From: Escherichia coli
Lineage (GTDB): Bacteria > Pseudomonadota > Gammaproteobacteria > Enterobacterales > Enterobacteriaceae
Assembly (NCBI RefSeq): GCF_041886205.1
Contig: NZ_CP169030.1
Length of the DNA stretch: 64,000 nucleotides
Reading direction: 5' to 3' (one strand)
The position numbers and the translations under genes are program-made. Shown here piece by piece: positions 2,234 to 5,472 of this stretch (positions are counted from its first letter, which is position 1; each line of letters begins with the position of its first letter). The notes below the pieces were generated by a model that was not told the origin of the DNA, did no database searches, and worked only from the letters and a program-made list of their open reading frames with translations.

Positions 2234-2381
2234 AACAACCTCCGGACTAAGTGAGATGTATCAACCTTTATAGATAGCACGTTGGAGATGTGGGGTAAGG
2301 GATATCACTCAAATTCCATGTAATTTCATTAAGATCAGACTTAACCTTTTTTCGGATCTCAGATAAAAAAGAAAGAAATAG

Positions 2382-2512
2382 AGATATGCTAAACATATGC
2401 CTGGCATCTACATATGCTACCGCTATACATATGCCACACATCTGCCTATACTAAACATATGCACACACCCGGTGCTTTGAATATTCCGGATATGTTTCAC
2501 ATATCCATATGC
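2382..2512. promoter_or_regulatory. vapBC promoter/operator region with at least five ACATATGC repeats
   Basis: Motif (A)CATATGC occurs at about 2393, 2411, 2427, 2455 and 2505 directly upstream of the vapB start codon; CATATG is palindromic. Confidence 0.4.
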
Positions 2513-2528
2513 TCGGGAGAGAAAAAAC

Positions 2529-2759
2529 ATGAGAACCGTATCGATATTTAAAAATGGCAACAACCGCGCCATCCGTCTGCCTCGTGATCTGGATTTTGAG
2601 GGGGTGAGCGAGCTCGAGATCGTCCGGGAAGGGGACAGCATCATCCTGCGCCCCGTCCGGCCAACCTGGGGATCATTCCTAGAGTACGAAAAAGCCGATC
2701 CAGATTTTATGGCGGAGCGCGAGGATGTTGTCAGCGACGAAGGGCGATTTAACCTGTGA
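2529..2759 (+). CDS. vapB: VapB/VagC-type antitoxin (AbrB/SpoVT fold)
   Basis: 76 aa, N-terminal SpoVT/AbrB-like motif (RAIRLPRDL), stop overlaps start of PIN toxin gene. Confidence 0.8.
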   Translation: MRTVSIFKNGNNRAIRLPRDLDFEGVSELEIVREGDSIILRPVRPTWGSFLEYEKADPDFMAEREDVVSDEGRFNL

Positions 2760-3172
2760 ACAAGACTTATATGCTTGATACCTGTATCTGCTCGTTCATC
2801 ATGCGTGAACAGCCAGAAGCCGTCCTGAAGCGTCTGGAGCAGGCGGTGCTACGCGGCCACCGTATAGTGGTCTCGGCCATCACCTACTCTGAAATGCGCT
2901 TCGGGGCTACCGGCCCAAAGGCCTCACCACGTCACGTCCAACTGGTCGATGAATTCTGCGCCCGCCTCGATGCCATCCTGCCCTGGGATCGCGCCGCAGT
3001 AGACGCCACCACGAAGATTAAAGTGGCACTGCGGCTGGCCGGGACGCCGATCGGCCCGAACGACACGGCGATTGCCGGGCACGCCATCGCCGCCGGGGCG
3101 ATACTGGTAACGAATAATACAAGAGAATTTGAGCGAGTGCCTGACCTGGTGCTGGAAGACTGGGTGAAGTAA
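2756..3172 (+). CDS. vapC: VapC/VagD PIN-domain toxin
   Basis: 138 aa; MLDTCICSF N-terminus and C-terminal VTNNTREFERV motif typical of plasmid VapC/VagD PIN nucleases. Confidence 0.85.
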   Translation: MNKTYMLDTCICSFIMREQPEAVLKRLEQAVLRGHRIVVSAITYSEMRFGATGPKASPRHVQLVDEFCARLDAILPWDRAAVDATTKIKVALRLAGTPIGPNDTAIAGHAIAAGAILVTNNTREFERVPDLVLEDWVK

Positions 3173-3209: not shown

Positions 3210-3235
3210 AAACAGCCCGTATACGGGCTGTTTTA
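3210..3235. terminator. Bidirectional terminator hairpin (AAACAGCCCG-TATA-CGGGCTGTTTT)
   Basis: Perfect inverted repeat flanked by A-run and T-run between convergent vapC and the RloC-like gene. Confidence 0.5.
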
Positions 3236-3333: not shown

Positions 3334-5472
3334 TCAAGCGATACGGGCAACCGAGCTCTGGTTTGCTGCCGGTGGCAGGGCGATGAGCTTGTCACATTCC
3401 ATAATCACGTACTCCGGGATGAGATCGAATCTGGACGGATCTAGTTGACAGATGAACTCATTTTCAATGTGGTACGTTTCGTTAACGAATTTTCGTATTA
3501 CCGGATGGTCCTGATCCAGTTCCAGTAAACGGAATACCTGCAGTTTTTCATAGCCGTTACGACAGCGACGGTACAGGTTTTTTATTTCATCTGGGCTGCT
3601 GACGAGAGCCTGAAGTCGCGGGTAATCAAAACTGTCCACATACTCCCGGATATCCCGCAAGGCCTGCTGAATTTTCTCAGGAGCCATTTTGGGATAGCCC
3701 GAGCCCGCAGCGGCAGGCTCGCGATAATCCAGCGGGACGACGCGTCGATGGAATAGATTGGATAGAAGCTGATAAGCATCACCACGTTCGTCAACGATTT
3801 CAAAGTAGCGACGAAGATAGATGAGCTTAATGATCTCCTCACAGTCTGCTGACGCGGTGATGGATTTGCAGATCTGCATGAATGTCATGATATCGCCGTC
3901 GTTAACAGGTAATTCTTCTATGACTCCAGCAGACAGGCGCAGGCAGGAGGCGGTCACCTGATTACTGAACAACCTTCTGACTGACTTCAGCGTGTCAATC
4001 ACAGGCTCCACGTCATGCGTCAGCATAAGTACAGTCCGGTTCTTCAGGCATTCACCACTTGCACGTCTGAACAGCATTTCAAGAATGGCAAACTTCTTGT
4101 TTTTATCAAAAGAAGATATGGGATCATCAAGGATAATCAGTCCCGGGTTTTTTGACAGGCATTCATACATGAATAACACAATCGCAAAGGCGTTCCGTTC
4201 TCCATAGCTGAGATGCTGGCTACCGCCGCTGACGTACCCGTCAAAATCTATGTGTCGTAGCCTGAGTTTTCTCTGCTCTCCCTCGCCGGCTATATCCACC
4301 CTGTATTTATAGCCTGCATAAGTGAGGAAATTATTGATGTTTGTTTTGTGCTGTGCGATCAGCCGGATCATGCTGTCCCGGTGCCGGTTAATTTTTCCCT
4401 GCAGCGGTCCGGCAAGGTTTATCAGGTCCATAAGGGCCGCGTTCAGTCTGTCGGTGATCCCCTGCATGAGTTCGGATTGCAGATCAGGGAAGAACTGCAG
4501 GTCAATCAACCTGGCAGTGAGCACCTCCCGAACGTTCTGCTGTTCCTGCAGGCTGAAAACATTCAGGCCTCTCAGCGCAGTGAGTTTCTCTGTCAGCGTA
4601 TCGGTCTGGCGTTTCAACGCCACTAGGTACTCGATATGTTCGGCTTCCGGACCGTTCTGAAGCATAGTAATGGCCAGAAGGCGTTCTCTGGCGCTCTCCG
4701 TCAGGTAATTACCGAGGTTTTCCACCAGTCTGATGATAGCGGTCAGGTTTTTAATGGTGGATTTATCGTATTCCTCTCTGACTTGGCGAATTTGTGCTTC
4801 CTTTCCCGTGATATCACCGGTACAGAACGGACAGCAGCCATCCGAAAGGGGCGAAAACTCGAGTCCCTTTGTCTGCCAGTCAATCCATTCCACGCGGCGT
4901 TCACTGCGGATGTAGGGTTGATAGTTCTCAAGACCAGCCGGAATGTGGTGTATTTTATTTCCGCCTGACAGACCTCTCATGCCGGTTGAAGAACGTGAAA
5001 TCCCGGAACTGGTTGATCTGAAAGCATTACTGAGTTCCTGTAGATGGTCTATCAGAGAGTTCAGCTCAGTGTGATCCGTGAAAACAGCCCGGATCTTTTG
5101 CGTCATTTCTTCTATTTCACGCTCTCTTTCCGCATGGGCTTGATTGCGGATAAGAATATTAAAGCTATCACTGATGAGCTCGTCCGGTTGGAACGTAAAC
5201 TGACTGACGTACTCCTCGTTGAAGCACATCACGTCCCCAATCCCGTCAGCACCGATGACAATGGGCCCGGTGCTATCGGGGTTTTCTCCGCGCAGCCGGA
5301 AGGGTATCAGTGCCTGTAGTCCCTGAATGTCGTCCCGCGCCGCACAGCTTATGGCCCGTGACAGCGTACTTTTTCCAGTACCATTTGGCGCAAACTTAAT
5401 GTTCAGTTTATCGGCAGTGAGGGTGATATGTGCTCGTACGATGTTATTGCAGTGGCGTATTTCAATGTCCAT
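3334..5472 (-). CDS. ABC-type ATPase with coiled-coil CxxC zinc hook and C-terminal domain; RloC/PrrC-like anticodon-nuclease candidate
   Basis: Walker A (FAPNGTGKST) at N-terminus, long predicted coiled-coil insert containing CPFC, Walker B/D-loop (LIILDDPISSFD) and H-loop (LMLTHD), then ~220-aa C-terminal domain with LRRYFE and H-containing motifs; architecture matches RloC. Confidence 0.5.
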   Translation of the reverse strand: MDIEIRHCNNIVRAHITLTADKLNIKFAPNGTGKSTLSRAISCAARDDIQGLQALIPFRLRGENPDSTGPIVIGADGIGDVMCFNEEYVSQFTFQPDELISDSFNILIRNQAHAEREREIEEMTQKIRAVFTDHTELNSLIDHLQELSNAFRSTSSGISRSSTGMRGLSGGNKIHHIPAGLENYQPYIRSERRVEWIDWQTKGLEFSPLSDGCCPFCTGDITGKEAQIRQVREEYDKSTIKNLTAIIRLVENLGNYLTESARERLLAITMLQNGPEAEHIEYLVALKRQTDTLTEKLTALRGLNVFSLQEQQNVREVLTARLIDLQFFPDLQSELMQGITDRLNAALMDLINLAGPLQGKINRHRDSMIRLIAQHKTNINNFLTYAGYKYRVDIAGEGEQRKLRLRHIDFDGYVSGGSQHLSYGERNAFAIVLFMYECLSKNPGLIILDDPISSFDKNKKFAILEMLFRRASGECLKNRTVLMLTHDVEPVIDTLKSVRRLFSNQVTASCLRLSAGVIEELPVNDGDIMTFMQICKSITASADCEEIIKLIYLRRYFEIVDERGDAYQLLSNLFHRRVVPLDYREPAAAGSGYPKMAPEKIQQALRDIREYVDSFDYPRLQALVSSPDEIKNLYRRCRNGYEKLQVFRLLELDQDHPVIRKFVNETYHIENEFICQLDPSRFDLIPEYVIMECDKLIALPPAANQSSVARIA

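Follow-up and report, generated by a model that had tools for sequence, protein, structure and literature searches.

Two operators, vapO1 and vapO2, each made up of two half-sites, control the vapBC locus of Salmonella LT2, where VapB binds two inverted repeats lying over the -10 and -35 elements, one VapB4C4 octamer occupies each, and excess VapC brings about release (PMC3378870). The vapBC locus of S. flexneri likewise has two operators with two half-sites apiece, and its VapBC complex gel-shifted two 30-mers, one carrying GATATAC...ACATATCC and the other GTATATCC...ACATATCC (PMC3384007). In both systems, pairs of half-sites are bridged by VapB4C4 and are subject to conditional cooperativity (PMC3378870, PMC3384007). 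Co-crystals of the Caulobacter and Rickettsia complexes place one AbrB dimer on each short palindromic half-site, with the octamer bridging two of them (PMC5389673, PMC3326315). The half-sites are ~10 nt apart in Caulobacter (PMC5389673), and the contacted regions of the R. felis operator (bases 3-12 and 17-26) are centred ~14 bp apart (PMC3326315).

Autoregulatory antitoxin operators, including those with multiple sites, are well known, and for VapB the paradigm is two operators. Outside the VapB systems, ccdAB of F, mazEF and the heptads of the omega repressor spread many short sites over ~100 bp of promoter DNA, which chains of complexes occupy cooperatively; CcdA and omega have the ribbon-helix-helix fold. 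Those systems differ from the array described below in motif and in spacing rule, and their proteins are not homologous to the VapB encoded here, although MazE shares its AbrB-type fold. Our search found no literature on the vagCD promoter or operator, nor any binding, footprint or reporter work on this VapB. Papers on pSLT vapBC2 were set aside as irrelevant, that locus being of the mvpAT type and different from this vapBC family. What is added here, in a control region for which no description was found, is the large number of sites, the strict lattice on which they lie and their natural variation in copy number.

The locus lies in a 64-kb stretch of DNA from Escherichia coli, referred to as the window. 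Within the array the heptamer CATATGC occurs exactly, and on the plus strand only, at starts 2394, 2411, 2428, 2456 and 2506 (n = 5; span 2394-2512, 119 bp), and four of these five copies extend to the full octamer ACATATGC (2393, 2410, 2427 and 2455). The core CATATG is a perfect palindrome. Shuffled sequence gave a mean expectation of ~0.017 copies for a 119-bp span, for which the Poisson probability of five or more is 1.3e-11, and the cluster probability was ~8e-7 after correction for every window position. Across the window as a whole the heptamer is not enriched, with 9 copies seen against 9.3 expected, so the signal lies wholly in the clustering. The rest of the window holds four more matches on both strands, two of them being the single palindromic site at 464-471; these copies, at 464-471, 11127 and 38134, are isolated within coding regions, look like chance occurrences and were discarded. 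The site at 464-471, inside an open reading frame at 231-1004, is a lone perfect palindrome, GCATATGC, identical to the site consensus of the vapBC family, and is probably also due to chance.

One-mismatch copies are interspersed with the exact ones, namely AGATATGC at 2382, ACATCTGC at 2438, GGATATGT at 2488-2495, ACATATCC at 2499 and CCATATGC at 2505, and two degenerate copies, GCATCTAC at 2404 and GCCTATAC at 2444, fall on the array's own spacing lattice. The position homologous to the former reads CATCTGC in relatives. Counted in this way, the 131-bp array at 2382-2512 holds 9-11 sites, or about 10. Near its 3' end, 2488-2506 holds two perfectly inverted 8-bp arms, GGATATGT-ttc-ACATATCC, separated by 3 bp and with 11 bp from core to core. 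The original prediction, made from the DNA letters and their open reading frames, had reported five to six copies of a CATATGC motif directly upstream of vapB. The cluster is real, five exact copies standing against the ~0.017 expected, and the five exact copies are indeed there; the count was nevertheless too low, since near-matches bring it to about 10. The wording "directly upstream" is correct, because the 3' end of the array lies 16 bp before the vapB ATG (2529). The features of the array and its surroundings are as follows.

2332-2379, plus strand: cassette left-end element, an inverted repeat AGATCAG...CGGATCT followed by the A-rich block GATAAAAAAGAAAGAAA
2382-2389, plus strand: site 1, AGATATGC, distal putative VapB-dimer site, 11 bp to site 2
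2393-2400, plus strand: site 2, ACATATGC, putative site with exact CATATGC
2404-2411, plus strand: site 3, GCATCTAC, degenerate candidate of the CATCTGC type, 11 bp past site 2 and 6 bp ahead of site 4
2410-2417, plus strand: site 4, ACATATGC, the conserved CATATGc found 36 bp 5' of the -10 hexamer in the family footprint
2424-2429, plus strand: predicted -35 hexamer TATACA, from the promoter scan, overlapping site 5
2427-2434, plus strand: site 5, ACATATGC, putative, overlapping the -35 hexamer
2438-2445, plus strand: site 6, ACATCTGC, candidate within the promoter spacer, 11 bp past site 5
2444-2452, plus strand: site 7, GCCTATAC, degenerate counterpart of GCATATAC in the family (consensus GCaTATACT), fused to the -10 hexamer
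2447-2452, plus strand: predicted -10 hexamer TATACT, from the promoter scan
2455-2462, plus strand: site 8, ACATATGC, over the predicted start at ~2459 (placed from the -10 hexamer)
2488-2506, plus strand: sites 9 and 10, GGATATGT-ttc-ACATATCC, inverted repeat in the predicted 5' untranslated region
2505-2512, plus strand: site 11, CCATATGC, 6 bp past site 10 and just 5' of the Shine-Dalgarno sequence
2515-2521, plus strand: Shine-Dalgarno sequence GGGAGAG, by inspection
2529-2759, plus strand: vapB (vagC), 76-aa AbrB/MazE-type antitoxin, presumed binder of the sites
2756-3172, plus strand: vapC (vagD), PIN-domain toxin, presumed co-repressor, its start overlapping the vapB stop by 4 nt
3212-3234, plus strand: hairpin ACAGCCCG-TATA-CGGGCTGT followed by TTT, by inspection, probable operon end

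A terminator scan that requires 5 T gave no match after vapC, where the hairpin at 3212-3234 has a short T run.

The product of vapB contains an AbrB/MazE-type domain (PF04014, E=3e-9) and that of vapC a PIN domain (PF01850). Relatives of this VapB in the PDB are 6ifm, 5k8j, 3zvk and 3tnd, the VapC matches tRNA(fMet)-specific VapC chains with E down to 3e-27, and the closest solved VapB/VapC pairs are those of Salmonella, Shigella, Caulobacter, Haemophilus and Rickettsia. VapB residues N9, N11, R16 and R19 align without gaps with Asn9, Gln11, Arg16 and Lys19 of R. felis VapB2, which make base or backbone contacts, and they also align without gaps with Ser11, Asn13 and Arg21, through which C. 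crescentus VapB1 contacts DNA. These four residues are invariant across nine aligned cassette variants, and the N-terminal domain of VapB is nearly invariant across the family.

The locus resembles vapBC of Salmonella LT2 and mvpAT/vapBC of S. flexneri pMYSH6000 in pairing an AbrB-type VapB with a PIN toxin like the tRNA(fMet)-specific VapC and in having xATATx cores. Sites overlap the -35 and -10 elements in Salmonella and S. flexneri, and those in the window overlap the predicted hexamers too. The ATAT cores in the S. flexneri oligonucleotides are 13 bp apart, and ACATATCC, present in both of them, is identical to window positions 2499-2506, the xATATx core being common to both systems. The original prediction that the motif is suited to a VapB operator is supported. 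The Salmonella and S. flexneri loci differ from the present one in having four half-sites with cores 13 bp apart, where we find about 10 predicted sites on a lattice of 6, 11 and 17 bp, and the VapB encoded here is only distantly related to theirs (E ~1e-5 to 1e-9). The earlier statement that there are more copies than usual also agrees with this comparison, in which about 10 sites stand against two operators of two half-sites in the characterised enteric promoters. In the C. crescentus VapBC1 (5L6M) and R. felis VapBC2 (3ZVK) complexes, whose contact residues align with N9, N11, R16 and R19, the AbrB dimer reads the half-site in a widened major groove. Unlike the array, these are single operators with two half-sites, with other cores (ARTATATAYT in R. 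felis) and a spacing of ~10 nt or ~14 bp.

The only sigma-70-like match in positions 2150-2650 is TATACA-17-TATACT (2424-2452), which sits inside the array; it is a weak match to the consensus (9/12), and shuffled sequence yields such matches about as often. The same TATACA-17-TATACT is likewise the only match, again within the array, in three diverged promoters (L004, L007 and L017), and a fourth (L012) has TTATCA-17-TATACT as its only match, also within the array. Sites 1-4 reach ~45 bp 5' of the -35 hexamer, and the array runs ~50 bp 3' of the predicted start. The overlap of the array with the predicted promoter itself was missed by the original prediction. An alternative promoter picked out by eye, with TTGAAT (2477-2482) and a -10 element near 2500, was rejected; it was absent from the scan, and relatives have a 3-bp insertion between the two elements.

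We anchored 67 non-redundant promoters on TATACT to obtain a family footprint. Its consensus is CATATGc.....cTATACAtAtgc....catctGCaTATACT...CATATGCa, in which the sites and the two hexamers are conserved and the spacers are not. The minimal relatives, from Xenorhabdus and an Azoarcus MAG (L077 and L085), have a TTGAC[CA]-17-TATGCT promoter that is overlapped by sites, of which there are just two, GCATATGC-N3-ACATATGC, with the -10 hexamer TATGCT inside the first. The minimal forms and the window thus share a constant design, a -10 hexamer embedded in one site with the next site covering the predicted start. By eye, and below the scan threshold, a further TAAACA-17-TATGCT (8/12 of the consensus) is found at 2390-2418 in the upstream repeat unit and mirrors the TTGAC[CA]-17-TATGCT of the minimal relatives; it could be a weak second promoter born of duplication.

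We then compared site spacing over 79 non-redundant homologous promoters, which provided 286 gaps between adjacent sites. Exactly 6, 11 or 17 bp separated the sites in 209 of the 286 (66, 91 and 52 gaps, respectively, 11 bp being the commonest), compared with ~15, 10 and 6 (~30 in total) for random placement; homologous promoters share ancestry, so these gaps are not independent trials and the statistics overstate the independent support. The remaining gaps are mostly 23, 28, 34 or 45 bp, close to multiples of ~5.6 bp. The commonest octamers in the family are GCATATGC (58 times) and ACATATGC (57 times), and relatives carry sites in both orientations. The original prediction had called for comparison with vagCD promoters on other plasmids and held that it would fail if motif spacing were not conserved in homologous promoters; both motif and spacing proved to be conserved, 209 of the 286 gaps falling at 6, 11 or 17 bp.

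The number of sites in the 79 promoters ranges from 1 to 13 with a median of 3, and the 10 of the window fall in the top tenth. Toward the ends of this range are the two-site minimal operator of Xenorhabdus and the 13 sites of one gut isolate. The median was 8 in 14 plasmid records and 3 in 23 contigs longer than 400 kb (P = 8e-5 by the Mann-Whitney test, with no correction for phylogeny). A 28-bp period is repeated 2.1 times in the window, and the largest array, with its 13 sites (L046, CABIZV010000009.1, 1002-1159), consists of 3.7-4.6 copies of a 34-bp unit, and the 93% matches among these copies indicate recent tandem amplification of operator units. The best reading of these repeats is that units of 28-34 bp were duplicated in tandem, starting from an ancestor with two sites. 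In the opposite direction, ~68 bp of the array is gone from one relative (L005, CP088357.1), and E. coli pB379_3 (L011, NZ_CP090458.1, ~1500-1637) has lost the TATACT -10 hexamer with vapB and vapC intact; the promoter scan of this last locus returned no promoter-like match. Both losses look like deletions between repeats. The existence of these natural variants shows that vapBC does not always need the complete array.

Many plasmids match the region at 99.6-100% identity, among them R64 (IncI1), in which the genes are annotated as vapB and a VapC-family toxin, and at least 5000 PLSDB records encode this VapB, which is of the widespread vagCD type. When the intergenic region was used as a BLAST query, homology in IncF backbones began at ~2330-2343, just 5' of the first motif, and the DNA further upstream and the neighbouring genes vary between contexts. 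Diverged cassettes were found on IncF, IncR and other replicon types and in Leclercia, Pantoea, Klebsiella and Serratia, all with arrays of the motif. A scan of one genome per species added 80 further loci, many on chromosome-size contigs, whose VapB is 55-97% identical. Array-bearing contigs reach ~5 Mb, and the motif adjoins vapB in nearly all 80 loci. For each 100 bp, the non-redundant scan loci had 1.60 sites in the 260 bp 5' of vapB, against 0.157 in their flanking DNA. From Escherichia to Xenorhabdus and the Azoarcus MAG, on plasmids and chromosomes, the only constant neighbours of the motif are vapB and vapC. The array travels as part of a mobile vapBC (vagCD) cassette found on IncI1, IncF and IncR plasmids and on chromosomes, and is not backbone DNA.

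The left-end element of the cassette has the consensus AGATCCG-N14-CGGATCT followed by GAAAAAGAGAGAA in 32 distinct loci, the left arm being AGATCAG in the window. The element at 2332-2379 is not shaped like a canonical terminator. Its GATCT arm is 28 or 39 bp from the first site, a distance that fits the site lattice. Some copies of the cassette are incomplete. On the E. albertii plasmid pESA135_2 (L008, NZ_CP070283.2) an array at 1501-1618 has no annotated vapB downstream and IS66-family genes begin at 1957, a layout that points to disruption of the cassette by an insertion sequence. In Pantoea sp. IMH, Enterobacter sp. Cy-643 and a Pseudomonas plasmid (L070, L097 and L098), vapB contains stop codons or truncations and 1-2 sites are left; these are likely decaying copies.

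The motifs very likely represent an extended operator, enlarged by tandem duplication, through which VapB or VapBC represses its own vapBC (vagCD) genes. They adjoin the antitoxin gene and overlap its predicted promoter, and the antitoxin has a DNA-binding domain with aligned contact residues. The sites are palindromic, lie about one helical turn apart and resemble proven sites, and the motif follows the gene while the spacers diverge. Because motif and spacing are both conserved in homologous promoters, cooperative binding of VapB to multiple sites is the reading we favour. We infer that the CATATG palindrome is the whole site for one VapB dimer, a point that the original prediction missed.

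In the mechanism we propose, each RCATATGC or RCATCTGC octamer would be bound by the AbrB-type swapped-hairpin domain of a single VapB dimer. Sites 5-8 would span the promoter from the -35 hexamer through the spacer and the -10 hexamer to the start, and their occupancy would exclude RNA polymerase. The flanking sites, 1-4 extending the array ~45 bp upstream and 9-11 lying between the predicted start and the ribosome-binding site, might provide added cooperativity or act as roadblocks. VapC dimers would bridge VapB dimers into VapB4C4 hetero-octamers, each over two sites, and the simplest octamer pairs would be sites separated by 11 bp and facing the same side of the helix (2383/2394, 2428/2439, 2445/2456 and 2489/2500). 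Neighbouring complexes would help one another to bind, and would presumably come off the DNA when VapC is in excess, as in conditional cooperativity. Where sites are 6 bp apart they overlap, and probably only one of the two can be occupied at a time. It is speculation that sites 17 bp apart, which face nearly opposite sides of the helix, could match the clamp-like geometry suggested for the octamer of Shigella.

The main rival to the extended operator is that only the promoter-proximal sites (~2427-2462, perhaps also 2488-2512) act, the copies at 2382-2417 being neutral by-products of slippage or unequal recombination. A site number that varies from 1 to 13, two-site minimal operators that evidently suffice, the persistence of the deletion-like variants L005 and L011 on natural plasmids and the recent tandem amplification in L046, with its 93% matches, would all be compatible with such drift. 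Yet in diverged arrays the spacers change and the upstream sites retain both the octamer and the exact 6, 11 and 17 bp spacing, family-wide conservation extends to the distal CATATGc block 36 bp 5' of the -10 hexamer, and plasmid arrays are consistently larger (median 8 versus 3, P=8e-5, uncorrected for phylogeny); we consider neutrality of the extra copies unlikely. That CATATG is bound by some protein other than VapB, for instance a nucleoid protein or a regulator of host or plasmid origin, is very unlikely, because vapBC is the only constant neighbour across hosts. The linkage of the motif to vapB across hosts and in plasmid and chromosome contexts, its resemblance to proven sites of a VapB homologue, and the parallel between an invariant motif and a near-invariant VapB N-terminal domain all speak against such a binder, despite the AT-rich core of the motif and the presence of another conserved cassette element just upstream (2332-2379).

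The inverted repeat at 2488-2506 could also be read as RNA, with an 8-bp stem and a 3-nt loop in the predicted leader, 9 nt 5' of the Shine-Dalgarno sequence, in which case it would be a hairpin of the 5' untranslated region that controls stability or translation and not a DNA site. However, the fold of the leader is not more stable than that of shuffled sequence (z = -0.67), the commonest relatives, GGATATGC...ACATATCC, break the loop-proximal pair and have an arm nearer the DNA site consensus, and one relative (L009) swaps both arms for ATATGC/GCATAT with the 11-bp core spacing kept, so that we hold out very little prospect for an RNA role; no Rfam family matched in 2100-2800. Plasmid iterons are direct repeats of ~17-22 bp with regular spacing in one orientation, and the array, as a cluster of direct repeats on a plasmid, is like them in that respect. 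An iteron-like role had been raised by the original prediction. Short repeats set at regular intervals on a low-copy plasmid, in arrays that exceed the chromosomal ones in size, could in principle be maintenance DNA, either replication iterons or a centromere-like partition site. The units here are 8 bp, unlike those of iterons, with 6, 11 and 17 bp spacing, both orientations in relatives and chromosomal copies as well. No rep, parA or parM gene and no origin is adjacent to the array, whose neighbours are a TIR protein, a 96-aa open reading frame, vapBC and an AAA ATPase, and there is no DnaA box (TTWTNCACA) within ~840 bp of the array, the nearest being at 1541 inside a coding region. The array also overlaps the predicted vapB promoter and occurs in IncI1, IncF and IncR plasmids and in contigs up to ~5 Mb. 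On these grounds (the lack of a nearby rep gene or DnaA box, the wrong unit size and spacing, and the spread over unrelated replicons and chromosomes) the iteron-like role was abandoned, and a partition centromere was rejected in turn, as no ParA/ParM NTPase operon is adjacent and the downstream genes are vapB and vapC; a maintenance function of either kind is scarcely credible.

If the array is an extended VapBC operator, its enlarged plasmid form might do more than repress. It is conceivable, though doubtful, that its roughly ten sites, on a lattice of about half a helical turn, nucleate a VapBC filament or two-face clamp, which could either be a DNA-bound reservoir that sets the VapB:VapC ratio for toxin release after plasmid loss or bridge two plasmid copies. 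Were this so, array length would be a tunable trait selected for post-segregational killing, and such selection would explain the plasmid median of 8 against the chromosomal median of 3. Among the toxin-antitoxin cassettes that resistance and virulence plasmids carry in Enterobacteriaceae, the vagCD/vapBC type is one of the most frequent. The analysis provides for experiment the consensus RCATATGC/RCATCTGC, the predicted promoter, the 6/11/17-bp rule and a natural series of operators with 2-13 sites; this series offers ready constructs for relating site number to cooperativity and toxin release in VapBC. Apart from it, the element is most likely an ordinary autoregulatory operator.

In the window, vapBC lies between candidate anti-phage genes, both on the minus strand, at 1054-2233 and 3334-5472. 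The former encodes a match to PADLOC PDC-S35 (E=2e-65), 299 aa long and with a TIR domain of the CAP12/Pycsar type, and an overlapping 96-aa open reading frame without a family match precedes it. The latter, convergent with vapBC, encodes a 712-aa AAA_13 ATPase that matches the candidate defence family PDC-S06 (E=9e-286); this neighbour is not constant across contexts. Together, the TIR and AAA_13 genes look like a small defence islet on the IncI1 backbone.
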